Assembly: GCA_965202985.1 (NCBI GenBank)
Contig: CBDBCF010000001.1
Location: forward strand, 1,824,001 to 1,888,000
Direction of reading: 5' to 3'
DNA: 64,000 nt
From: Longimicrobiales bacterium
GTDB lineage: Bacteria; Gemmatimonadota; Gemmatimonadetes; Longimicrobiales; Gaopeijiaceae
Below are positions 39,690 through 53,402 of the stretch, in pieces. Made by a program: the position numbers and the translations under genes. Each line of letters starts with the position of its first letter. The stretch's first letter is position 1. The notes under the pieces were generated by a model that was given only the letters and a program-made list of their open reading frames with translations, searched no databases and had not been told where the DNA came from.

Positions 39690-39700
39690 TAGTGTCGCGT

Positions 39701-39774
<74 letters not shown>

Positions 39775-39795
39775 TTTTCAGTACCCTTCCAGGAT

Positions 39796-39862
39796 GCCGG
39801 CCAGGCCGTCGGCGCGGAGGAGCCGGGCGCGCTCCCCTCGTGCCGCACCGGGTCGGTTTTTT
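39796..39862 (+). terminator. Long GC hairpin plus T6 between tRNA-fMet and tRNA-Phe
   Basis: gccggcc..cggcgcggaggagc pairs with gctcccctcgtgccg..ggtcggt, followed by a T run. Confidence 0.55.
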
Positions 39863-39884
39863 GTCGGCGGGTGCTGGGGGTTCC

Positions 39885-39957
39885 GGCCAGGTAGCTCAGT
39901 TGGTAGAGCACGCGACTGAAAATCGCGGTGTCGGCGGTTCAATTCCGCCCCTGGCCA
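39885..39957 (+). tRNA. tRNA-Phe (GAA)
   Basis: cgcga ct GAA aa tcgcg; full cloverleaf. Confidence 0.95.
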
Positions 39958-39973
39958 TGGCGGGACAGTCCAC

Positions 39974-40047
39974 AGGTCCGTAGCTCAACTTGGTAGAGCA
40001 CCGGTCTCCAAAACCGGCGGTTGGGGGTTCGAGTCCCTCCGGGCCTG
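39974..40047 (+). tRNA. tRNA-Trp (CCA)
   Basis: ccggt ct CCA aa accgg. Confidence 0.95.
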
Positions 40048-40064
40048 CTCGGCGGCAAGTCGTC

Positions 40065-40136
40065 GCCCTCATCGTCTAACGGTTAGGACACCACTCTTTC
40101 AAGGTGGAGATCGGGGTTCGATTCCCCGTGAGGGTA
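40065..40136 (+). tRNA. tRNA-Glu (TTC)
   Basis: ccact ct TTC aa ggtgg. Confidence 0.93.
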
Positions 40137-40139
40137 TCG

Positions 40140-40214
40140 GGGGCTGTAGCTCAGTTCGGTTAGAGTGCCGGTCTGTCACACCGGAGGCCGCGGGTTCGAG
40201 TCCCGTCAGCCCCG
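40140..40214 (+). tRNA. tRNA-Asp (GTC)
   Basis: ccggt ct GTC ac accgg. Confidence 0.95.
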
Positions 40215-40219
40215 TGGAA

Positions 40220-40232
40220 GGTCTTTGACAAC
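40220..40232 (+). promoter_or_regulatory. boxA-like antitermination motif
   Basis: ggtctttgacaac resembles rRNA-operon boxA (xxTCTTTxAxAA). Confidence 0.5.
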
Positions 40233-40274
40233 AAGGGTCGCGAGAGCAGTGTCCGGCGGCAGCGCCGGAACGCT

Positions 40275-40347
40275 GGGGCCGTAGCTCAGTTGGGAGAGCG
40301 CCTGAATGGCATTCAGGAGGTCAGGGGTTCGACTCCCCTCGGCTCCA
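40275..40347 (+). tRNA. tRNA-Ala (GGC)
   Basis: cctga at GGC at tcagg; G3:U70. Confidence 0.95.
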
Positions 40348-40360
40348 CTCGCAGCGCCAA

Positions 40361-40445
40361 GCTCGGGTGGCGGAATTGGTAGACGCGCAGGATTCAGGAT
40401 CCTGTGGGGGTTAACCCCGTGAGGGTTCGAGTCCCTCCCCGAGCA
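40361..40445 (+). tRNA. tRNA-Leu (CAG)
   Basis: cagga tt CAG ga tcctg; long variable arm. Confidence 0.95.
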
Positions 40446-40467
40446 CTTGGTCGGTTGTCGGAACGTC

Positions 40468-40551
40468 GCCCACGTGCTGGAATTGGTAGACAGGCTGGTT
40501 TGAGGGACCAGTGTTCGAAAGGACGTACAGGTTCGAGTCCTGTCGTGGGCA
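40468..40551 (+). tRNA. tRNA-Leu (GAG)
   Basis: ctggt tt GAG gg accag; long variable arm. Confidence 0.93.
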
Positions 40552-40581
40552 TGGCCGCCATGGGCACGGCCGGCGGCGAAA

Positions 40582-40655
40582 GCGCCCGTAGCTCAATTGG
40601 ATAGAGTACCTGACTACGGATCAGGGGGTTGGGGGTTCGAGTCCTCCCGGGCGCA
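40582..40655 (+). tRNA. tRNA-Arg (ACG)
   Basis: cctga ct ACG ga tcagg. Confidence 0.95.
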
Positions 40656-40673
40656 CTTGGGGGAAGGGGGAGC

Positions 40674-40747
40674 GGGCGCGTAGCTCAGCTGGTTAGAGTG
40701 CCACGTTGACATCGTGGAGGTCACAGGTTCGAGTCCTGTCGCGCCCA
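40674..40747 (+). tRNA. tRNA-Val (GAC)
   Basis: ccacg tt GAC at cgtgg. Confidence 0.95.
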
Positions 40748-40761
40748 TCCGGGATTCTGAC

Positions 40762-40834
40762 GGGGCCGTAGCTCAGTTGGGAGAGCGCAGCGTTCGCATC
40801 GCTGAGGTCAGGGGTTCGACTCCCCTCGGCTCCA
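40762..40834 (+). tRNA. tRNA-Ala (CGC)
   Basis: cagcg tt CGC at cgctg; G3:U70. Confidence 0.95.
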
Positions 40835-40841
40835 CTTCCTT

Positions 40842-40914
40842 GCCACCGTAGCTCAGCTGGTAGAGCACGTCACTCGTAATGACGGGGTCGTCGGTTCAAG
40901 TCCGACCGGTGGCT
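40842..40914 (+). tRNA. tRNA-Thr (CGT)
   Basis: cgtca ct CGT aa tgacg. Confidence 0.95.
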
Positions 40915-40932
40915 CTCTCGAAGCGGTTCCAT

Positions 40933-41005
40933 AGCCCCGTGGTGTAATTGGCAACACGTCTGACTCTGGATCAGAAGAGTCCTGGTTCGAGCCCAGGCGG
41001 GGCTA
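40933..41005 (+). tRNA. tRNA-Gln (CTG)
   Basis: tctga ct CTG ga tcaga. Confidence 0.93.
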
Positions 41006-41018
41006 CTTCAAGCAAGTT

Positions 41019-41103
41019 GGAGGGATGGCTGAGCGGCTAAAAGCGGCGCCCTGCTAAGGCGTTGGTCCCCTGGACCACGTGGGTTCGAATCCCACTCCCT
41101 CCG
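41019..41103 (+). tRNA. tRNA-Ser (GCT)
   Basis: gcgcc ct GCT aa ggcgt; variable arm; G73. Confidence 0.93.
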
Positions 41104-41228
41104 TGCGCGAAGCGAATGGAGGGAATGGGGTCCGAACGTGTTCGAGCCGAAGGGGGTCTCGGGCCGGCAGGCACGAGTCCCCGAAGACGGCCAACGGCCC
41201 ATCCCACTCCCTCCGTGCGCGAAGCGAA
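41089..41228 (+). repeat. 28-bp direct repeat (tRNA-Ser 3' end plus trailer) flanking a structured spacer, period 112 bp
   Basis: atcccactccctccgtgcgcgaagcgaa at 41089-41116 and 41201-41228. Confidence 0.9.
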
Positions 41229-41265
41229 ACGAGCGGATGGGCCTCCATCCCCTACTTCCCCACCA

Positions 41266-41350
41266 GGACGGGTGGCCGAGCGGCTTAAGGCGCACGACTG
41301 GAAATCGTGTGGGCATTTTGCCCACGTGGGTTCGAATCCCACCCCGTCCG
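41266..41350 (+). tRNA. tRNA-Ser (GGA)
   Basis: cacga ct GGA aa tcgtg; variable arm. Confidence 0.95.
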
Positions 41351-41385
41351 TTCTCCCAGTCCCTTCTCGTTGTCCCACCAAGCCA

Positions 41386-41459
41386 CGGGGCGTGGCTCAG
41401 TCCGGTAGAGCGCTGCGTTCGGGTCGCAGAGGTCCCCGGTTCGAATCCGGGCGCCCCGA
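41386..41459 (+). tRNA. tRNA-Pro (CGG)
   Basis: ctgcg tt CGG gt cgcag. Confidence 0.95.
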
Positions 41460-41472
41460 TTCTCCGACGGAA

Positions 41473-41556
41473 GGAGGCGTAGTCCTAACTGGTAAGGCAC
41501 CGCACTCGAAATGCGGCGTGCGCAAGCACTTGGGGGTTCGAGTCCCTCCGCCTCCG
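41473..41556 (+). tRNA. tRNA-Ser (CGA)
   Basis: ccgca ct CGA aa tgcgg; variable arm. Confidence 0.93.
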
Positions 41557-41683
41557 TCGCCCTGTCCGCCATGCTTTCGCGGGCAGGGCTTTCTTGCGTA
41601 ACCTTGCGTCTCGCTCGGCCTGTCGCCCGACGCATTCCCGTCGCCGCCTCTCCCCCAGCCGGCTTTCTTTGGAAGCGGACCCC

Positions 41684-43951
41684 GTGAAGCAGCTTCTTCA
41701 GTCGTACAGAACCGGCGAACTGTGGCTCGCGGAGGTGCCCGCGCCCCGGTGCGCATCCGGCGGCGTCGTGGTTCGGACCCGGTTCAGCGTGATCTCGGCG
41801 GGCACCGAAAAGATGCTCATGGAGCTGGCCAAGAAGAGCCTGCTGGCCAAGGCCCGCGCCCGGCCCGACCTGGTGAAGCGCGTCGTGGCGAAGGCGCGCG
41901 TCGAAGGGATCGGGCCCGCATTGCGGAAGGCGCTGGCCAAGCTGGACGAGCCCGTGTGCCTGGGATACTCCGCTTCCGGCGACGTGGTGGAGGCCGGCGT
42001 GGAGGCAGGCGGCCTCAGGCCGGGCGACCGCGTGGCCGTGGGCGGCGGGGGCTACGCCACGCACGCCGAGTTCAACTTCGTTCCCCGGAACCTCTGCGTT
42101 CGCGTCCCCGAAGGCGTTTCCCACGCCGACGCCGCCTTTGCGACGGTGGGCGCCGTCGCAGTGCAGGGCGTGCGGCAAGCCTCCCCGCTGCTGGGCGAGC
42201 ATGTCGTGGTGATCGGGCTGGGGCTGCTCGGTTTGCTGACCGTGCAAATCCTCAAGGCCAACGGCTGCGCCGTCCTGGGCGTCGACCCGGACTCGAACCG
42301 GGCTGATTTGGCCAAGAAGCTGGGTGCCGACGCGGTTGCGGTCTCGGACGTCGAGGGCGCTTCGGAGGCGTTCACGTCGGGCCGAGGCGCCGACGCCGTG
42401 ATCATCGCTGCCGCCTCGTCCGACAACGGTCCCATCGAGACCGCAGCCCGCGTGTCGAGGCAGAAGGGGCGCGTGGTGGCGGTGGGCTTGGTGGGGTTGG
42501 ACGTGCCCCGCGACGCTTTCTTCCGGAAGGAGCTGGACTTGCGCCTGTCCATGTCCTACGGGCCGGGCCGCTACGACCCCGCCTACGAGGAAGGGGGCAC
42601 CGACTATCCGCTGCCGTACGTCCGCTTCACCGAGCAGCGCAACATGGAGAGCTTCCTGTACTTGGTGGAGCAGGGAAAGGCGACGCCGCAGGCCCTGGTG
42701 ACCCACGTCGAGCCGTTCGAGAACGCGCTGGACGCCTACGCCGCCCTGATCGGCGCCGGCGCCGGGGCCGGCGGCGACCGGGAAGCGGGTACCAAGCCGC
42801 TGGGTGTTCTGCTCGAGTATCCGACGGACGCGCCGCTGGTCCGCTCCGTGCCGCTGGCGCCGTACGAGGGCCGGGGCACTCGGGAGACCCGCCGCGGCAT
42901 TGGCTCCCGTGACGGCACCGGACCCCACCAAGAGACCGGCTCCCGCGACGGCGCTCGCCCTCGCCACATGCGCGTGGGTTTCGTGGGCGCGGGGGCGTTT
43001 GCCCGCAGCGTCCTGCTGCCGGAGATCGGCCGGCGTCGCGACGTTCGCCTTGCGGGCGTGTGCACCGCCACCGGGCGTAGCGCCCAGCAGGCCGCCCAGC
43101 AGTTCGGCTTTGCCTTCGCAACCACCGACGCCGTCCGCGTTCTGGACGACGCAGACACCGACGCCGTGTTCGTGGCCACCCGCCACGACAGCCACGCCGC
43201 CCTGGCCGCCGCCGCTCTGCGGGCGGGCAAGCACGTCTTCGTGGAGAAGCCGCTGTGCATTCGCGAAGAGGAGATGGGCGAGGTCGAGGCGGCGTTGGCG
43301 GAAGCGCGCCGAGCAGGGCGCGACCCGTGCCTGATGGTGGGCTTCAACCGGCGCTTCTCGCCGCACGGCCGGGCTCTGCGGGCCGGTTTCGGCGAGCGGG
43401 GGCGGGCGCCGCTGGTGGTGAGCTACCGCGTCAACGCCGGCCCCGTGCCGGACCAGAGCTGGGTGCAGGACTCGGCCGTGGGAGGCGGTCGCATCGTGGG
43501 CGAAGCGTGCCACTTCGTGGACTTCTGCGGCGCGGTGGTGGGCAGCGAACCCGTCGCCGTCTGGGCGACCGCCGTCTCGGGAGACCGCGCCGGCGCCGTT
43601 TCCCCGGACTCGGTCGTCATGAACGTGGAGTACGCCTGCGGTTCCCTGGCTTCGATCCAGTACTTGGCCGGCGGACATCGGGACCTGCCCAAGGAACGCT
43701 GCGAAGTCTTGGGAGGCGGGTGCGCCGCGCTGGTGGACGACTTTCGCGCAACCCGGTTCTTCGGAGGCGGGCCGGGTGCGCGGGGCAGGCAGGACAAGGG
43801 CTTTGCCGCCGAGCTGGAGGCGTTCTTCGAGACGTGCGCCAAAGGAGGGCCGTGGCCGATCTCTTGGGAGAGCTTGATCGCCACGCACCGGGTGTGCTTC
43901 GCGGCGGTCCGCAGCGCCAAGACCGGCGAGCGGGTGGTGGTTGCCCGATGA
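41684..43951 (+). CDS. Bi-domain oxidoreductase (MDR/Zn-ADH-like + Gfo/Idh/MocA) of polysaccharide biosynthesis clusters
   Basis: GTG start; ISAGTE, LGYSASG, GLGLLG, SYGPGRYD, GFVGAGAFA, TRHDSHA, VFVEKP, GFNRRFSP, GEACHFVD. Confidence 0.88.
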   Translation: MKQLLQSYRTGELWLAEVPAPRCASGGVVVRTRFSVISAGTEKMLMELAKKSLLAKARARPDLVKRVVAKARVEGIGPALRKALAKLDEPVCLGYSASGDVVEAGVEAGGLRPGDRVAVGGGGYATHAEFNFVPRNLCVRVPEGVSHADAAFATVGAVAVQGVRQASPLLGEHVVVIGLGLLGLLTVQILKANGCAVLGVDPDSNRADLAKKLGADAVAVSDVEGASEAFTSGRGADAVIIAAASSDNGPIETAARVSRQKGRVVAVGLVGLDVPRDAFFRKELDLRLSMSYGPGRYDPAYEEGGTDYPLPYVRFTEQRNMESFLYLVEQGKATPQALVTHVEPFENALDAYAALIGAGAGAGGDREAGTKPLGVLLEYPTDAPLVRSVPLAPYEGRGTRETRRGIGSRDGTGPHQETGSRDGARPRHMRVGFVGAGAFARSVLLPEIGRRRDVRLAGVCTATGRSAQQAAQQFGFAFATTDAVRVLDDADTDAVFVATRHDSHAALAAAALRAGKHVFVEKPLCIREEEMGEVEAALAEARRAGRDPCLMVGFNRRFSPHGRALRAGFGERGRAPLVVSYRVNAGPVPDQSWVQDSAVGGGRIVGEACHFVDFCGAVVGSEPVAVWATAVSGDRAGAVSPDSVVMNVEYACGSLASIQYLAGGHRDLPKERCEVLGGGCAALVDDFRATRFFGGGPGARGRQDKGFAAELEAFFETCAKGGPWPISWESLIATHRVCFAAVRSAKTGERVVVAR

Positions 43952-45225
43952 CGAGCGGGGCGGCCGGGGGCGTGTCGAGTCGCTCCCCGGGCGAGCCAGG
44001 CGACCCCGACCGTCTTCGCATCCTGACCATCGTCGGCACCCGTCCGAACTTCGTCAAGGTCGCGTCGCTGATGGAAGCGTACCGTTCGAAGGGCGCCGGC
44101 GTGATCGATCCCGTGCTGGTGCACACGGGCCAACACTACGACGACGCCATGAGCGACAACTTCTTCCGCGACCTGGACTTGTCCCGGCCGGACGTGAACC
44201 TGAACGTCGGTTCGGGAAGCCACGCGGCGCAGACGGCCCAGATCATGACCCGCTTCGAGCAGGTGGTGGTGGATCAGCAGCCCAGCGCGGTGGTCGTGGT
44301 GGGCGACGTGAACAGCACGGTCGCGTGCGCGTTGGTGTGCGCCAAGATGCGCGTTCCCGTGGTGCATGTGGAGGCCGGCCTGCGGAGCGGCGACCGCTTG
44401 ATGCCGGAAGAGATCAACCGCCTCGTGACCGATGCGGTCGCCGACCTGATGTTCTGCACCGAACCGGCGGCGGTCCGCAACTTGGCGCGAGAAGGAGCCG
44501 ATCCCGACAACGTGTTCCTGGTGGGCAACGTCATGGTGGACACGCTCCTTCGGTTCCGGGAGCGTGCCCGATCTTCCCGGGTCCTGGAGGAGCTCGGCGT
44601 GACGCCGGGCAACTACGCCGTCGTGACGCTGCACCGGCCGTCCAACGTGGACGACGGGGCGGTCCTGGCGGGACTTGCGGAGGCGATCACCCAGGTCCTG
44701 TCGACAGTCCCCGTGGTGTTGCCTGCCCATCCCCGTCTTCGCAACGCTCTGGCGCAGGCCGGGTTGGAAGCGTGGTCCGACCGCTCGCGCGACCTGAAGA
44801 TGACCGGCCCTCTTCCCTACCTGGACTTTGTCGAGCTGTTGGCAAACGCCCGCGTAGCGCTCACCGATTCGGGCGGCGTGCAGGAAGAGACCACGGTGCT
44901 GGGCGTTCCTTGCGTCACTTTGCGCAACAACACGGAGCGCCCGATCACGATCGAGGCCGGGACGAACCGGCTGGCCGGGGTCGAGCCCCAAAGCGTCGTC
45001 GCGGCGTTCAGGGCAGCGTTGCGCGACGGTGACGCCGACGGCGATCAGGACCGCGCGCGCCGCCTAGGCCAGGAGCGGCCGCCGGCGTCGGACGGCGACC
45101 GCGAAGGCCTGAAGCGCGACCGACCCCTCCCGCCGCTGTGGGACGGCAAGGCGGCGGAGCGAATCGTGCCGATCCTGGTCGAGCGGTTGCGGGCTCAGCG
45201 CAGCATGACGCGCGCGCCCATCTGA
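43948..45225 (+). CDS. wecB: UDP-N-acetylglucosamine 2-epimerase (non-hydrolysing)
   Basis: GTRPNFVK, HTGQHYD, GDVNST, HVEAGLRS, PEEINR, HRPSNVD, TDSGGVQEE, TERP, WDGKAAERI. Confidence 0.93.
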   Translation: MTSGAAGGVSSRSPGEPGDPDRLRILTIVGTRPNFVKVASLMEAYRSKGAGVIDPVLVHTGQHYDDAMSDNFFRDLDLSRPDVNLNVGSGSHAAQTAQIMTRFEQVVVDQQPSAVVVVGDVNSTVACALVCAKMRVPVVHVEAGLRSGDRLMPEEINRLVTDAVADLMFCTEPAAVRNLAREGADPDNVFLVGNVMVDTLLRFRERARSSRVLEELGVTPGNYAVVTLHRPSNVDDGAVLAGLAEAITQVLSTVPVVLPAHPRLRNALAQAGLEAWSDRSRDLKMTGPLPYLDFVELLANARVALTDSGGVQEETTVLGVPCVTLRNNTERPITIEAGTNRLAGVEPQSVVAAFRAALRDGDADGDQDRARRLGQERPPASDGDREGLKRDRPLPPLWDGKAAERIVPILVERLRAQRSMTRAPI

Positions 45226-48200
45226 ATTCGCCACCTGGAGAACACGCCCGGGTCGGACATGAACGTCCGGTCGGGTCCGGTGAACTCGAAGACGGGTTCG
45301 CCGGTGCCGTCGAACTCCACCAGCCGCAGCGGAGACGTGGCGGCCGGGCTGGCGATCTTGCGCACGCCCCAGGCGCTGTTCAGCAGATTGCCCACGTTGA
45401 GGACGTCCAAGCTGATCTGAACCGTCTGTCCGCGCACGCGCACGTCCTGCAATATCCGCACGTCCAAGCTGCTGAACCAAGGCGCCAAGGCACCCATCCG
45501 CTCCGAAGTGCGGCCCCGGTTGCGGCTCAAATACGGGTCCTGTTCGATGAACGCGTCCAAGAGCGCCCACTCCGACGGGTTCGCCAAGTTGATGTCGCCC
45601 GCGTCCCGCGGAATATAGATCAAGTCGTTGCCGGCCTGCCCGTCGCCGTTCACGTCGCCGGCGTAGACGAACGAGAACCGGTTGCCCCCGGCGGCGGTGA
45701 AGCGCCCGCCCTGCGCCACTTCCGCGAAGAGGCCGAAGTGGGTCGCGAACCGCTCCGACCAGGTGCGCGTGTACGTGCCCGAGGCGGTGAACCGGTGCCG
45801 CGGACCGAACTCGGACCACGACAGGCGCGGGTTGTTGGGGTCGCCCTGCATCGGCAAGTTCTGCCACATCACCGATGCGATCTCGGTGGTCTTCATGTTG
45901 TTCTTCGCCTGGGTGAAGGCGTAGGCGGCGGACGCCGAACCGCTTGCAAAGCTCCGGCCGAGCTGGGCGGTCAGGTTGAAGTTGTAGCCCTGGCTGGAGT
46001 TGTCCAACACGTAGATGCCGGCACCGCCGTCGGGGTTGAGTTCGTGGGCGCCCGGGCCGCCGTAGTAGGGGCGGCCGTCGCGCAGCGTCCGCTGGGGGTG
46101 CGCCAAGTCGGCGTTGCGCACCACGACCGCGTTGACATCGTTGCCGTACAGCACCTCCAGCGTGCCGGTCCAGCCGCCGGGCAGCTGCTGGTCCACGGCA
46201 AGGTCCGTCACCCACACCTGCGGCCATCGAAAGTCGGCGTCCAAGGCATTCAGGTCGAAGGTCTGCTGCAGGACCGTGTTCTCGGCCGTCTGCACTTGCG
46301 GCACGCCCTCGTTGGCGCCCGGAGCCCAGATGTTCGGGTTGGCCCCCGGGTTGGAGATCACGTTGCCGACCCAAACGAACGGGATTCGGCCCGTGAAGAC
46401 CCCCGTCCCGCCCCGCAGTCGCGTCGAACCATCCCCGCGCACATCCCAGTTGAACCCCAGCCGGGGCGAAAGCAGCGGGGTAGCGCCGGGCAGCGCGCTT
46501 TGGTCAACTGTTTCGGGGTTGCCGTCGCGGTCCAAGGCCGCAAGCCCGCGCGAGAAAGGGTTGTCCACCGGTTCCGTGAAGTACAAGGGGATGTCCACGC
46601 GGAGCCCGGCGGTCACGTCAAGGTTGTCGCCGACGGAGAATTCGTCTTGTGCATACAGCGACAGTTGCCCAATGTCGGTGGTTTCGCCCTTGTAGGGTCC
46701 GACGCCGATCATGGCGTCGAAGTCCTTGGCGCCGTCCTCGGTCGCGGCGAAGAACTCGTCCAGCGAAGCGAATGTGGAGCCGATCGAGAGCGTCCAGGGC
46801 AAGAAGAACAGGCCGTGGCGAAAGAGGTTGAAGGAGTTGAAGAAGCCGAACGTCTCGAAGTTGGCGCCGGCCGTCAGCGCGTGCCTGCCCCGGTAGAAGG
46901 TCGCGTTGTTGGTGAACTGCAGCACGTCCTGGTGCACCACGTTGCGGATCGAAAAGGGCTCGTGGCCCAGCGTGGTGTAGCCGATTCCGCCTTCGCCGAT
47001 CTCGATCGTGGGGTAGTCGGCGCTGAACGGATCGCGAGTGTCGCGAAACCGGTTGTAGCTGGCGAAGAAGCGATTGGCGTAGCGGTCGCCACGACTGTTC
47101 AGCTCCAGCGCAAACGAGTGCAGCCGGTTGTTGATCGCGTAGCCGGCGTTGCGAAAGGGAAGCGACGAGCCGTTGGGGCCGCGGCCGGCGTTGTTGAAGC
47201 TGATCGCAGCCGGATGCGGCCCTTGCTCCCGACGGGCGTCCAAGTAGCTGTAACGGAAGGTGAAGTGCTGGCGGTCGCTGACGTTCCAGTCCAGCTTGGC
47301 CAGCAGCTTGTCGTTGTCGGTCTCGTGGACGTAGCCCTGGTAGGGGCCGGGGTCGTAGCCGTAGACCGACATCATGCGCGCCCGGATCGAGTCCATGACC
47401 GAGGCGCGCACCCGCGACTCCCCGAAGCCCGGCGCGCCGTCGTCTCCGCTGGCGACGAAGTCGGTGCCCGGATCGTCCCGACGCTCGATCTCGGCGTTCA
47501 CGAAGAAGAGAAGCTTGTCGCGAACGACCGGTCCCGAGGCCGTGACGCCCGACTGGTTGAACGACAGGTCGGGGCTCGCGGACACCTCGTTGCCTTCGAC
47601 CCGGTTGCCGATCAGAGATTCGTTGCGCGCGAACGTGTACGCGGATGCTTGGTAGCGGTTGGTGCCGCTCTTGGTCACGGTGTTCACGTTGGCGCCGGTG
47701 AAGCCGCCCTCGCGCACGTCGAACGGCGCCACCGACACGTGAACCTGCTCCACGGCGTCGAAGGGGACCGGTTCCGCGTTGGCCTGGCCGCCCGGCGCCG
47801 GGTCGTCCAAGCCGAACGGGTTGCTGAAGTAGGAGCCGTCCAGCGAGACGTTGTTGTAGAGCCAGTTGCGCCCGGCGAAGGCCAGGTTGCCGTCGTTGCG
47901 CGGGTCGACGCGAACGAGGTCCCGCGTGGTGCGCTTGATCGACGGCAGCGCCGCGACCTGTTCGGAACCGATCGACGTGGCCGCGCCCGTGCGCCCGGCC
48001 GCGCGCCCCTGGCCTGCGGGCACCTCCACCTCGATGCCTTCGATCTCCAAGGCCCGCGCTTCCAGATGAAGGTCGACGCGAACCGTCTGGCCCAGCAGCA
48101 CGAAGACACCCTCTTCCGTGCGCGCGGCGTGCCCGATCATCTCGGCGGTGACCGCGTACGGTCCGCCCACGCGCATGTTGGGAAGCGAGAACGCCCCGTC

Positions 48201-49595
48201 CGCCCGACTGACCGCCGAGTAGCGCGTGCCCGACTCCACATGCACCGCAACCACCGACGCGCCCGTCAAGGGCTGGTCTTCGGCCCCGTACACGAAGCCG
48301 CCCACGCCGCCGGTCGTCACGCCCTGGCCGGCCAGGGCGGGCGCAGGGAAGGCGGCCGCCGCCGCCAGCAGCAGCACCGACGCGACCCCCGCCGAACGTC
48401 TTGGGCCAGCGCCTGCTATACCAGCGCTGTCGCCGGAGCGCGACTCGGCGGACGACGCCTCCGCGGAAGCGGCCTCGGCGGGCTGTCCACGCCGATTGCC
48501 CGCCGAAAGCCCCTGCGCCTCCAGCGCCTCGACGACGGACTTGATGATCCCGTCTCGTTCGTCGTGCACCTGCACGTATACCTGGAAGGCCTGCCACGTG
48601 CCCCTGGGGCCGTCGTCGAACAGCGTGCCGTCGATGACGAAGGGCTCCTTGGAAGCCTTGATCGACGCGCAGCAGTCGGCCCTGGATTCGCCGTGTCCGA
48701 AGCGCCGAAGCGCGATCTTGGCGACGCCCCGCACCGACGCGATGGCGCGGACGATGTCGCGGGCTCGCGCAGAGGGGATGTCCCCGAGTTCGCGAACCGC
48801 CTTGCCCCAAACGGTGGAATGCGATTTGCCGGACGACACGTCCACGCGGACCGCCCCCTCGGGCCGGGGTTCCTTGACGAAGGCGGCCCGGGGGTTCCGC
48901 TTGCGCGCAAGAGAGCGCTTCCACTCCCTGGTCAGCCCTGCGAACGCCAAGTCGCGCTTCCGCTCCCACCTTCGGAAGACGGTGCGAATGGCGTTGTCGA
49001 TGTCCGTGGTGGTCACGGCGCCGTCGATCCATCGGTCGCTCTTCTCCAGCTCGGCGATCACCTCCGGCAGCACGATTCGGGGCACCACGATGTCGTCGTT
49101 CTTGGTCCTGCGGCAGGCCCCCGCCACCGACGCAATGATCTTGCGGCGCGCAAAGGCTTCCTGACGTCCGCCCGACTTGCGCACCTTCCAGCTCGCCTCG
49201 GCGCCGAGCATGTCGCGCAACGCCTTGGCCGCCTTGAGCGCGCTGTCGACGACGGCGTCGGCGTGGAACTGCAACATGCGGTGACGGAGATGGTTCGGGT
49301 CCGCAACGACGACCGGGCGTCCGATCCGGCTGGCGTGCACAACGCCCAAGGTCGTGCCGATCGACTCTCGCCACATGTTGGCAAGGATGCCGTTCGACCG
49401 CTTGATCTCCCCGAGGTCCGCTTCCACGAACTCTTGCGGACTCGACCTCCTGGAGATCATGTCTTCGGTCGGGTCGATGAAGTCGAAGTCCTTGGCGTAC
49501 TTCTTCTTGACGTCGTCTCGCCACTTGTGCTTCTGGATGTCCGAACATCCGCTGATCGGACCGGCGAGATAGACCAGAAACTTGCTTGAGGACAT
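45195..49595 (-). CDS. Fusion: nucleoside deoxyribosyltransferase-like + ATP-cone-like + DUF2103-like + Oar-type TonB-dependent receptor (1466 aa)
   Basis: Single frame from ATG at 49595. VYLAGPI...DLGEI...SIGT; KVRKSGGRQEAFARRKI...VTTTDI; SHST...; internal signal-like VLLLAAAAAFPAPALA; then GVTTG...VGGPYAV, NNVSLDG, GFTGANVNTVTKSGTN, PRLGFNWD. Confidence 0.8.
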   Translation of the reverse strand: MSSSKFLVYLAGPISGCSDIQKHKWRDDVKKKYAKDFDFIDPTEDMISRRSSPQEFVEADLGEIKRSNGILANMWRESIGTTLGVVHASRIGRPVVVADPNHLRHRMLQFHADAVVDSALKAAKALRDMLGAEASWKVRKSGGRQEAFARRKIIASVAGACRRTKNDDIVVPRIVLPEVIAELEKSDRWIDGAVTTTDIDNAIRTVFRRWERKRDLAFAGLTREWKRSLARKRNPRAAFVKEPRPEGAVRVDVSSGKSHSTVWGKAVRELGDIPSARARDIVRAIASVRGVAKIALRRFGHGESRADCCASIKASKEPFVIDGTLFDDGPRGTWQAFQVYVQVHDERDGIIKSVVEALEAQGLSAGNRRGQPAEAASAEASSAESRSGDSAGIAGAGPRRSAGVASVLLLAAAAAFPAPALAGQGVTTGGVGGFVYGAEDQPLTGASVVAVHVESGTRYSAVSRADGAFSLPNMRVGGPYAVTAEMIGHAARTEEGVFVLLGQTVRVDLHLEARALEIEGIEVEVPAGQGRAAGRTGAATSIGSEQVAALPSIKRTTRDLVRVDPRNDGNLAFAGRNWLYNNVSLDGSYFSNPFGLDDPAPGGQANAEPVPFDAVEQVHVSVAPFDVREGGFTGANVNTVTKSGTNRYQASAYTFARNESLIGNRVEGNEVSASPDLSFNQSGVTASGPVVRDKLLFFVNAEIERRDDPGTDFVASGDDGAPGFGESRVRASVMDSIRARMMSVYGYDPGPYQGYVHETDNDKLLAKLDWNVSDRQHFTFRYSYLDARREQGPHPAAISFNNAGRGPNGSSLPFRNAGYAINNRLHSFALELNSRGDRYANRFFASYNRFRDTRDPFSADYPTIEIGEGGIGYTTLGHEPFSIRNVVHQDVLQFTNNATFYRGRHALTAGANFETFGFFNSFNLFRHGLFFLPWTLSIGSTFASLDEFFAATEDGAKDFDAMIGVGPYKGETTDIGQLSLYAQDEFSVGDNLDVTAGLRVDIPLYFTEPVDNPFSRGLAALDRDGNPETVDQSALPGATPLLSPRLGFNWDVRGDGSTRLRGGTGVFTGRIPFVWVGNVISNPGANPNIWAPGANEGVPQVQTAENTVLQQTFDLNALDADFRWPQVWVTDLAVDQQLPGGWTGTLEVLYGNDVNAVVVRNADLAHPQRTLRDGRPYYGGPGAHELNPDGGAGIYVLDNSSQGYNFNLTAQLGRSFASGSASAAYAFTQAKNNMKTTEIASVMWQNLPMQGDPNNPRLSWSEFGPRHRFTASGTYTRTWSERFATHFGLFAEVAQGGRFTAAGGNRFSFVYAGDVNGDGQAGNDLIYIPRDAGDINLANPSEWALLDAFIEQDPYLSRNRGRTSERMGALAPWFSSLDVRILQDVRVRGQTVQISLDVLNVGNLLNSAWGVRKIASPAATSPLRLVEFDGTGEPVFEFTGPDRTFMSDPGVFSRWRIQMGARVMLR

Positions 49596-49703
49596 GGATT
49601 CGCGCGCGCCGCGCTGGCGGTTGGGAAGGGGAGGAGCGATTTGCGAACCTCGAACGATAAGGTTACGCTCGCCTCCATACCAGCCTTCTTCCGGAGCCCC
49701 GTC

Positions 49704-52700
49704 ATGCGCTGCATCCACGTCCTTCTCGCGACCGCTGTTCTCGCGGCTGCCCCATCGCCGCCGGCCTCCGCCACGGGCCGCGCCCCGCAATCCTCGACCG
49801 CCCTGCAAGCGACCGACGCCCGGACCCCCCTCGAGCAAGCCCTGGACGCCCTGTCGTTCCGGGAGATCGGACCCGCGATCATGGGCGGGCGCGTGGCGGG
49901 CCTGGCGCCATTGGAGTCGAACCCGGCGAAGTTCTACGTGGGCCTGGCGTCGGGCGGCGTCTGGCTGACGGAGAACAACGGCATGTCGTGGACGCCCCTC
50001 TTCGACGACCAGCCCTGCGCGTCGATCGGCGCCGTCGCGTTGTTCCAGCCGAACCCGAACGTGGTGTGGGCGGGCACCGGCGAGCCCCAGAACCGGCAGA
50101 GCTCGCCTTACGGCTGCGGCGTCTTCAAGTCCACCGACGGTGGGCGCACCTGGACCGACGCGGGACTCCGCGACACGCGCCACGTCTCCCGCATTGCGGT
50201 CCATCCGACGGATCCGGAGGTGGCGTACGTGGCTGCCGTCGGGCACCTGTTCGGCCCCAACGAGGAGCGCGGCGTCTTTCGCACGACGGACGGCGGGGCG
50301 AGCTGGGAGAAGGTGCTGTACGTGGACGAGAACACGGGCGCCGTGGACCTGGTCATGGACCCGTCCGACCCCCGGACGCTCTTCGCCGCCATGTACCAGC
50401 GGCGACGCACGGCGTTCGGCTTCAGCGCCAGCGGGGCCGGGAGCGGCCTCTACCGCACCACCGACGGCGGCAACCACTGGGCGCGGCTGGAGGAGGGCTT
50501 GCCCGAGGGCGACCTGGGGCGCATCGGAATCGACGTGTACCGGCGGGACGGCAACGTGGTCTACGCGCTGGTGGAGTCGCGCGGCGCGGGCCGGGGGTTG
50601 TACAAGTCCACCGACCGAGGCGAAAGCTGGCGGAAGGTGTCGTCGAGGAACCCCCGCCCGATGTACTTCAGCATGGTGCGCATCGACCCCAACAACCCGG
50701 AGCGCATCTATCTGGGCGGCGTGCGCTTGTCGGCGTCCGACGACGGCGGCAGGACTTGGTGGGAAGGCGACGCGGCCGACGGCATCCACGTGGACCATCA
50801 CGCGCTGTGGGTCGATCCGCGCAACTCCGACTACGTGCTGCTGGGCAACGACGGGGGCGTCGCCACCAGCGTGGACGGCGCGCGCACGTGGCGTCATCAC
50901 AACAACTTCGCCGCCGGACAGTTCTACGAGATCGGCGTGGACATGAGCGATCCGTATCGCGTATGCGGCGGCTTGCAGGACAACAGCTCGTGGTGCGCCC
51001 CCAACGAGACGGTGACCGGCTACGGCTTGCGCAACCGCGACTGGCGCGACGTGTGGGGCGGCGACGGCTTCTACAATCAGTTCGATCCCAACGACCCGAA
51101 TATCTTGTACACGGAGTCGCAGGGCGGCAATTCGGGGCGCGTCAATCTGGCCACGGGCGAAGTGCTTTCGATGCGGCCCGTGGCGCCCCCTTCGCCCGAT
51201 TCCGGCGACGAGAACGGCGAGGAACGCAGCTACCGCTACAACTGGAACGCGCCGATCGTGGTGTCGATGCACAACTCCAGCACGGTCTACGTGGGGAACA
51301 ATCACCTAATGCGCTCTCGGGACCGAGGCATGTCGTGGGAAGAGGCCAGCCCGGACTTGACCAAGGCGCTGGACCGCGACTCGCTGCCCATCATGGGAGC
51401 GCTGGTGACTGATTCGACGCTGTCGCGCCACGACGGCATCGCCACGTACGGCAACATCACCACGATCGACGAGTCGCCGCTGTCGCCGCAGGTCCTGTAC
51501 GTGGGCACCGACGACGGCAACGTGCAGGTCACGCAAGACGGCGGCGCGACGTGGACCAACGTCGCCGCGAACGTGCCGGGGTTGCCCGAGCGCTCCTACG
51601 TGAGCCGGCTGGAGGCTTCGGCCCACGCGGAGGGTCGCGTGTACGCCGCCTTCGACCGCCACTGGGACGACGACTACGGCGCCTACGTGTACGCCAGCGA
51701 GGACTTCGGGGCGTCGTGGCGCAGGCTGTCGGAGGGGCTGCCGGAGTGGTCGGTGAACGTTGTGCGCGAGCATCCGCGCAGCGAGGACTTGTTGTTCCTC
51801 GGGAACGAGGCGGGCGTCTTCGCGTCGCTGGATCGGGGCGCGTCGTGGCACCGAATGGGCGGCCTGCCGACAGTGCCCGTTGACGACCTGGTCGTGCACC
51901 CACGGGACAACGACTTGGTGGTGGGCACGCACGGGCGCAGCATCTGGATACTGGACGACCTGGTGCCGTTGGAGCACATGGCGGGCGGCGCCGTCTTCGA
52001 CAAGCAGGCGTACTTGTTCCCCGTGCCGCGGGCCACGCAGTGGTTCCGGATGGGCGGCTGGCCTTTCCGAGGCGACGTGTACGAAGCCGAGAACCCGCCC
52101 GACGGCACCGTCGCGCGCTACTGGCTTGCGGAGGGCGTGGACTCGGCGACGCTGTCGGTGACGACGCCGGGCGGCCAAGCGGTGCGGTCGCTGGACGCGC
52201 CGGCGGATGCGGGCATGAACCAGGTCGTCTGGGACCTTAGGGAGGACGCGCCCGTGGAGGTGCCGCCCGAAGACGGTTCGGGCGGCGGCGGTGCGGGCGG
52301 CGGACGGTTCGGGGGAAGCACGGCGGGGCCGCTGGTCTTGCCGGGCGCGTACGTCGTGCGGTTGGAAGCCGGAGACCAGGTGGCGGAACAGGAGGTCGTG
52401 GTGCGCATGGACCCCAGGACCGATCCCAACGTCTCCGCGCTTCGCGCCCGCCAGACCGCTGCGCGGGAAGTCGCCACGCTAAACGCGACCGTCGTGCTGG
52501 CCGTGCGCGCGCTGAACCGGGCATCGCGACATCTGGACGAGGCCGAGGCGCTGTTGGACGACGGAGCGGCGTTGCCTGGCGGCGACGAAGTCCGCGATTC
52601 CTTGAAGGCCGAGTTGGCAGAGTTGACTGCCGTCGCCGACTCGTTGCGGGCAGACCTGCAAGAGGCCCGACCGGGGCGCGCGGCCGCCGGGATCGAGCGC

Positions 52701-53402
52701 AACGCCGGACCGCCGTCGGCCAGCCAGCTGGCGGCGATCGATCGGGCATGGGAGCGCGTGCCCCCGCTTGTGGAAGAAGCGAACGCCTACGTTGCGGAGC
52801 GCGTGTCCGCCTTCTGGGACCGCATGGCCCGAGCCGGAGTGCGCCCGAGTCTGGGCGATCCGGTGAAGGTGCCCAAGCGGGCTCTTCCGGCGGAGACGAC
52901 GCCGGACCGGCCGTCGCTCCGCGTGCCGGTCGGTTCGGTCGGTTGGGACTCCAGGGGCGCCGCCGGGTTCGGGGGGCCAGCTCCCCGCTCGGAGTGGTCG
53001 GTGTGGTCCAGGTCCTTAGAGCATCCCCTGCGGCCAGTGTTCGCCGACAGCGCGTCGTTGAAGGGCCGGATGTTGGCCTCCCTGTCGGGAATCGCGCTCC
53101 TGGCCCAACTGCCGATGTGGGGGGTCGTCCTCTACAGGGGACTCGACAGCGATCGGCGAGAGAGCTATCGAGTCCCCATCACGCTGGCCGCGGCGGGGTC
53201 GGCGGCAGCCGTGGCTTGGGCAGCCCAAAGGATGGGCGCAAAGTTCTCCACTGCGCTTGTCGGATCGACCCTTGGGGCAGGCGCGGCCCTGGGGCTGGCC
53301 TCGACCATCGACCACAGCAGCGAGCTAGGCGCCGTGCTGTTCACCCCTCTCGCCAGCTCGGTGGTGCACGGACTCCTTATCGCACTGCTGGCCGCGCGCT
53401 GA
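49704..53402 (+). CDS. VPS10/BNR-repeat (sortilin-like) glycosyl hydrolase-like secreted protein with extra hydrophobic C-terminal tail
   Basis: Signal peptide, FREIGPAIMGGR, many S/TxDGGxTW Asp-boxes, HVDHHALW, GGLQDN, GGDGF, RYNWNAP, GTHGRSIW. Confidence 0.88.
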   Translation: MRCIHVLLATAVLAAAPSPPASATGRAPQSSTALQATDARTPLEQALDALSFREIGPAIMGGRVAGLAPLESNPAKFYVGLASGGVWLTENNGMSWTPLFDDQPCASIGAVALFQPNPNVVWAGTGEPQNRQSSPYGCGVFKSTDGGRTWTDAGLRDTRHVSRIAVHPTDPEVAYVAAVGHLFGPNEERGVFRTTDGGASWEKVLYVDENTGAVDLVMDPSDPRTLFAAMYQRRRTAFGFSASGAGSGLYRTTDGGNHWARLEEGLPEGDLGRIGIDVYRRDGNVVYALVESRGAGRGLYKSTDRGESWRKVSSRNPRPMYFSMVRIDPNNPERIYLGGVRLSASDDGGRTWWEGDAADGIHVDHHALWVDPRNSDYVLLGNDGGVATSVDGARTWRHHNNFAAGQFYEIGVDMSDPYRVCGGLQDNSSWCAPNETVTGYGLRNRDWRDVWGGDGFYNQFDPNDPNILYTESQGGNSGRVNLATGEVLSMRPVAPPSPDSGDENGEERSYRYNWNAPIVVSMHNSSTVYVGNNHLMRSRDRGMSWEEASPDLTKALDRDSLPIMGALVTDSTLSRHDGIATYGNITTIDESPLSPQVLYVGTDDGNVQVTQDGGATWTNVAANVPGLPERSYVSRLEASAHAEGRVYAAFDRHWDDDYGAYVYASEDFGASWRRLSEGLPEWSVNVVREHPRSEDLLFLGNEAGVFASLDRGASWHRMGGLPTVPVDDLVVHPRDNDLVVGTHGRSIWILDDLVPLEHMAGGAVFDKQAYLFPVPRATQWFRMGGWPFRGDVYEAENPPDGTVARYWLAEGVDSATLSVTTPGGQAVRSLDAPADAGMNQVVWDLREDAPVEVPPEDGSGGGGAGGGRFGGSTAGPLVLPGAYVVRLEAGDQVAEQEVVVRMDPRTDPNVSALRARQTAAREVATLNATVVLAVRALNRASRHLDEAEALLDDGAALPGGDEVRDSLKAELAELTAVADSLRADLQEARPGRAAAGIERNAGPPSASQLAAIDRAWERVPPLVEEANAYVAERVSAFWDRMARAGVRPSLGDPVKVPKRALPAETTPDRPSLRVPVGSVGWDSRGAAGFGGPAPRSEWSVWSRSLEHPLRPVFADSASLKGRMLASLSGIALLAQLPMWGVVLYRGLDSDRRESYRVPITLAAAGSAAAVAWAAQRMGAKFSTALVGSTLGAGAALGLASTIDHSSELGAVLFTPLASSVVHGLLIALLAAR

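Follow-up and report, generated by a model that had tools for sequence, protein, structure and literature searches.

The cytochrome b/c1 precursor FbcH of Bradyrhizobium japonicum is encoded by one ORF and retains an internal signal peptide at which it is cut. Internal cleavage has also been described for RsiV of Bacillus subtilis; in the portion of that report drawn on here, signal peptidase cleaves the protein internally, past its cytoplasmic domain, and a site-2 protease step comes afterwards (PMC4183432). Among sensor-effector designs, Menshen NsnC has an inactive-enzyme N-terminal domain with an interchangeable C-terminal effector (PMC12065111), and CARF7_DUF2103 is a sensor-effector defence protein (10.1101/2024.04.23.590562), both as outlined in the parts of these sources used here. 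In the window (the whole 64,000-nucleotide stretch of Longimicrobiales DNA that was analysed), a cytoplasmic module and an outer-membrane receptor are read in a single frame. We consider, with a probability of roughly 0.6, that the fused gene is a lineage-restricted polyprotein born from a translationally coupled gene pair, and the cell probably makes one chain that is cut at a buried export signal. If so, this would be a bacterial polyprotein caught at birth.

Layout of the fused gene

From the N- to the C-terminus, the protein was found to contain an NDT-fold domain, an ATP-cone, a third domain, a linker, a signal-like segment, CarboxypepD_reg and an OMP_b-brl_4 barrel. The features are as follows (window coordinates).

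45195..49595, minus strand: whole fused ORF, 1466 aa plus stop, one open frame
49191..49586, minus strand: NDT-fold domain, aa 4-135, with Gly84 at the catalytic-Glu position
48900..49190, minus strand: ATP-cone, aa 136-232
48846..48899, minus strand: variable low-confidence hinge, about aa 233-250 (pLDDT < 50 at 237-246)
48510..48845, minus strand: third domain, aa 251-362, helix, four strands and helix (model pLDDT 90.5)
48405..48509, minus strand: Ala/Ser/Glu linker, aa 363-397, standing where the ancestral stop/start overlap was
48375..48390, minus strand: SD-like GGGGGT, 7-nt spacer and in-frame GTG (Val407), a candidate internal start
48330..48404, minus strand: predicted internal Sec/SPI signal peptide, aa 398-422, predicted cut between Ala420-Leu-Ala422 and Gly-Gln
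45198..48329, minus strand: mature TonB-dependent-type receptor, aa 423-1466, 78% identical to congeners
48060-48305, minus strand: CarboxypepD_reg, 58.3 bits against a cut-off of 32.3
45378-47678, minus strand: OMP_b-brl_4 barrel, 176.8 bits against a cut-off of 30

An earlier sequence-only reading had claimed one unbroken 1466-aa frame and had named an assembly chimera, to be checked through read support, as what would overturn it. The suspicion of an assembly or sequencing artefact had some ground, as the source genome is a metagenome assembly and one indel could merge ATGA-coupled genes. However, the junction contains no ATG at all, and the home cluster (n = 9) comprised eight distinct full-length variants of 1466 aa, drawn from several sources and with at most 51 differences from the reference fused protein, besides a fragment of 300 aa on a short contig. 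The fusion was present in a second lineage too: in the sister cluster (n = 3, receptor 93% identical), one member carried it in full (P0393, 1469 aa). A separately started receptor was found in none of the 12 sequences of the two fused clusters. Positions 47800-49700 were crossed by one gapless contig in three of four sequencing runs, two of which may be the source of the DNA itself; the third, from another study, differed by 76 letters and gave a 96% identical, gapless contig. The frame was thus confirmed and the chimera ruled out, an artefact having practically no chance. The start is backed by homologues, Met1 being almost invariant across 104 aligned sequences. Named relatives belong to Longimicrobiales, Gemmatimonadota, and the DNA carrying it comes mostly from sponge metagenomes.

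The N-terminal domain adopts the flavodoxin-like NDT fold, as had been proposed, although its scores fell below Pfam gathering thresholds (15.7 against 28.8 for PF05014, 17.1 against 30 for PF15891 and 20.0 against 22 for PF14359). In NDT-type enzymes the Glu after SxGT is catalytic. The column of Gly84 aligns with the Glu of MilB-type enzymes; it holds Gly in 103 of 104 module-family members, and 43 of 45 single-domain relatives have Glu there. Judged from this substitution, the domain is a probable nucleotide-binding pseudo-enzyme, and the missing catalytic Glu fits a 'sensor' reading. The proposed ATP-cone was likewise recovered as the beta-cap and helical bundle fold of PF03477, with a score of 24.2 bits against a gathering threshold of 25.8 in the fused protein and E 4.5e-12 in the best family member; it would sense nucleotides by binding ATP or dATP. 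The hinge that follows (about aa 233-250) does not align across the module family.

The third domain is a putative effector. It has conserved His259, Trp263, Gly323, Asp327, Gln335 and Phe337, and no Pfam match was found for it. Its motif order is similar to that of DUF2103 by eye; a search for DUF2103 (PF09876) in four genomes gave 0/4 at E<=10, and hhalign against just four DUF2103 sequences scored 15.1, no better than what 60 shuffles also gave (up to 21.0). The order of its secondary structure fits BECR/RelE RNases, yet no member was found among its fold matches. Five short sequences of 132-147 aa (P0222, P0235, P0250, P0256 and P0262) consist of this domain alone and may be stand-alone genes or fragments.

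In the receptor half, earlier read as a complete Oar-type receptor, both domains scored above cut-off, and it is Oar-like by domain order and length. Its signal is not N-terminal but begins at about aa 398, while 118 of its 120 best matches are 1049-1107 aa long. No solved relative was found at E<=0.01.

Several further elements lie near the gene or elsewhere in the genome. A convergent oxidoreductase and UDP-GlcNAc 2-epimerase pair occupies window 41636-45225, with 31 nt of overlap between the 3' ends; on the other side, a divergent Sortilin/BNR-repeat protein (49641-53402) forms a flank common to six Longimicrobiales loci. Seventeen tRNA genes, all on the plus strand, are packed into 1.9 kb (window 39700-41556). 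A near-identical 55-nt stretch in G000 C1 and C2, present at eight genomic places, probably belongs to a repeated element or a family of genes. No promoter was found upstream of the fused gene by consensus scan; a TAACCT hexamer lies at ~49660-49665 (minus strand), about 65 nt upstream of the start, with TACATT/TACGTT in congeners (by eye).

The junction and its buried signal

The signal-peptide-like segment was indeed intact. Its h-region is followed by small residues at -3 and -1, its hydropathy resembles that of unfused orthologues, (A/G)-L-A ahead of GQ is kept in 11/11 fused-clade sequences, and its homologue in the unfused sister clade is an N-terminal signal. The evidence as a whole favours the polyprotein that the sequence-only reading had offered as one of two choices, here together with the accidental origin that was the other.

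The route from gene to products can be proposed as follows. In the clade ancestor the stop/start overlap would have been lost in frame, so that ribosomes from the module ATG would continue through the linker into the old signal peptide. The NDT/ATP-cone/third-domain module would fold in the cytoplasm, SecYEG would take the buried signal as a signal anchor, cleavage by signal peptidase I would fall between ALA and GQ, and the receptor would then reach the outer membrane in the usual way, with RseP releasing the module bearing a short tail. The products would be those of the ancestral operon, at 1:1; the fusion could therefore be nearly neutral, and locked in once the receptor start was lost. 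Signal peptidase I and RseP are both encoded in the genome. Because RseP normally removes signal-peptide remnants, lasting tethering is doubtful for the membrane-tethered sensor of the earlier idea. Against the polyprotein, the open-access literature yielded no tested precedent for an outer-membrane barrel that follows a leader of 397 residues.

It had also been claimed that no start codon was placed to begin the signal. This holds for the linker (aa 363-397), which contains no in-frame ATG, GTG or TTG, but the in-frame GTG at Val407 had been missed. Receptor could be made mainly from this GTG with a 16-residue uncharged signal, the long chain being a by-product for the module. The GGGGGT 7 nt upstream forms an anti-SD duplex of -9.3 kcal/mol, in the top 3% of random GTG (<=2.7% of 4000 reach -8), Val407 is present in 11/11 fused-clade sequences, and an uncharged n-region also seems to occur in one other exported gene of the genome. 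On the other hand, the site folds at -20.6 kcal/mol, more strongly than 95% of 460 SD-led starts (4.8% being as strong), and the resulting signal would be without a basic n-region. Most unfused members of the sister clade also have this Val, so it need not be compensatory, a Gly of the SD-like run is Arg in P0273 and P0392 (at protein level), and upstream deletions and indels preserve the frame. The other candidate start, ATA393, reads ATT in one strain, and the sister lineage has Thr at that position. We regard a main start at GTG407, the foremost rival of the polyprotein, as unlikely. No slippery site was found at the junction; with neither a stop nor such a site, the module would be made solely within the long chain even if GTG407 were used.

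Origin and maintenance of the fusion

ATGA is the commonest coupling motif among prokaryotes, according to the part of the source used here (PMC12548453). In all three congeners (G001, G002 and G003), the module (56-59% identical) was found directly ahead of the orthologous receptor (78%) as two genes with an ATGA stop/start overlap, and in L020 the overlap was TGATG. The fused gene is a single ORF uniting genes that are separate in these relatives. The unfused receptor starts paired with the anti-SD core at +1.9 to -3.9 kcal/mol, that is, with little or no SD site, and hence likely rely on translational coupling. A search with the fused-gene module as query did not detect it in 57 other relatives. 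The next clade out (receptor 87%, 17 members) had an ordinary N-terminal signal in 15/15 members read, and no close module homologue was found for it (nearest full-length matches 58%). On the receptor tree (FastTree, n = 22), the fused lineages formed one clade (support 0.998), sister to the unfused clade. By this topology, the fusion arose once and is confined to a clade of two sister lineages of an uncultured bacterium associated with sponges. The question of fused or separate genes in relatives thus had a divided answer: all close outgroups have separate starts, and the second lineage shares the fused architecture.

The module/receptor junction is an insertion hotspot. In L021 and L023 other genes are inserted between module and receptor: exactly there sit a PD-T4-4-like ATPase/partner pair (L021:7268-9236; A/B, E 1e-105 and 6e-5) and a Schlafen/AlbA gene (L023:7146-8564). 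The module of L020 ends in a 37-residue imperfect-repeat tail before TGATG (L020:7122-7235), a possible model of linker formation.

Between the fused lineages, identity was 115/135 for the NDT domain, 92/97 for the cone, 102/112 for domain 3 and 969/1044 for the receptor (85-95%), with 17/25 (68%) for the signal and 71% for the linker (25/35 residues). Three indels, of 1, 1 and 2 residues, were found in linker and signal, all in frame. These comparisons suggest that the frame across the fusion has been maintained, as read at the protein level, where frameshifted strains could be under-called; microhomology deletions in coding DNA would also tend to favour a kept phase. The frame would be kept because the receptor now needs an upstream start, not because both parts cooperate. 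A recent accidental fusion therefore survives as regards its single, clade-limited origin, but not as something left unmaintained.

Two of the three sister-cluster members (P0273 and P0392) have lost nearly the whole module through two in-frame cuts, taken as one event. They keep the first 12 residues of the module, the linker and the signal in frame, so that the module ATG still leads the receptor and an 83-residue leader remains ahead of its mature part. In 3 of 10 members of the L023-like cluster (P0281, P0413 and P0415), the receptor starts with about 33 first residues of the Schlafen/AlbA gene, with no Met ahead of the signal; here a leader was captured in frame for a second time, independently and at the same site. 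The 1:1 coupling once suggested finds no support as something needed by sensor and receptor: the module has been deleted in these two members, and outside Longimicrobiales no such receptor adjoins it.

The fusion might instead block export and leave the receptor half dead or decaying, as a folded 360-residue domain before the signal could impede SecA-type export. However, the fused-branch receptor is not accelerated (root-to-tip about 0.13 against 0.18-0.21), and strains lose the module, not the receptor half. In one strain, with 39 of 117 differences classed, synonymous against non-synonymous codons numbered 10 and 5 in the receptor, 4 and 3 in the junction, and 6 and 8 in domain 3. The receptor counts also speak against decay, which we hold to be very improbable; those of domain 3 speak against strong constraint on that domain.

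If adaptive, the fusion would make the amount or the release of a nucleotide-sensing defence effector depend on how a possible phage receptor is exported, maybe by RsiV-like regulated cleavage. The module adjoins the receptor in 7/7 module-bearing Longimicrobiales loci, defence-type genes insert exactly between the two, and both halves are conserved over two lineages. Yet the origin is single, the module is deleted in two of three sister-cluster members, no close homologue of it was found in the unfused sister clade, and the other 60 of 65 module loci have no receptor neighbour, save one weak, distant opposite-strand match. We consider adaptation improbable. Of the 65 loci, 60 stop <=68 codons past the module match and five run off the contig.

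The module family and comparison with known systems

The module may be a one-gene nucleotide-sensing defence or stress effector whose swappable C-terminal domain is gated by a dead NDT pocket together with an ATP-cone; we put the chances as about even. Forty-five representatives (P0164-P0260) join the dead-NDT and ATP-cone core to swapped C-terminal domains, often behind a coiled coil, and the largest tail group matches Menshen NsnC and HEC-07 tails. Against a defence role, none of the 104 module sequences matched PADLOC v2.0 at E<=0.01; enrichment of defence neighbours was not significant (28/143 vs 14/117, Fisher p 0.13), and no conserved neighbours were found across 66 loci. It is quite unlikely that the module founds an undescribed one-gene antiphage family, sensing the nucleotide pool to activate a swappable toxic domain and serving here as the leader of a receptor open to phage use, freed by signal peptidase and RseP, with a dose or arming that follows export. 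No report of the module family, or of an NDT/ATP-cone fusion to a receptor, was found in the open-access literature. The core with swapped tails is a concrete candidate for an undescribed, nucleotide-pool-sensing defence family, and may be a greater novelty than the fusion.

Among relatives, this one locus shows module and receptor coupled by ATGA or by TGATG, parted by inserted defence genes, or fully fused; some sequences have deleted the module, and others have captured a different leader. If the predicted cleavage is true, a folded cytoplasmic protein of 360 residues does not prevent the export of an outer-membrane barrel that follows it, and such chains can easily arise when a stop/start overlap is lost; still, not every gene fusion implies function.

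In comparison with the NDT/MilB/Rcl (DNPH1) N-glycosidases and YtoQ, the module's NDT domain has Gly for the catalytic Glu and is joined to an ATP-cone and a third domain. Like Menshen NsnC and CARF7_DUF2103, as far as the parts of those sources used here describe them, it pairs an inactive-enzyme-type N-terminus with a swappable C-terminal effector, and tails of its relatives match NsnC models (best E 1.2e-15); no PADLOC v2.0 model matched this module's own tail. Unlike in those systems, the sensor is an NDT-fold and ATP-cone rather than inPIN or CARF, and the module is a single gene without conserved partners in 66 loci, whereas the inPIN-led NsnC stands beside NsnA and NsnB. The mature receptor resembles Oar-like TonB-dependent transporters in domain order and length and differs from them by 397 extra residues before the signal. 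As in RsiV, a signal-peptidase site is predicted behind a cytoplasmic domain; RsiV, in the account drawn on, is lysozyme-gated and frees a sigma factor, whereas here the whole receptor would be exported and nothing indicates gating. As with FbcH, genes that stand apart elsewhere are united in one ORF by way of an internal signal peptide that has been kept. FbcH yields two subunits of one inner-membrane complex, in contrast to a soluble cytoplasmic module and an outer-membrane barrel with predicted cleavage. By analogy, the fused gene would work like an FbcH-type polyprotein, with a soluble N-terminal partner that has no relation to the receptor.
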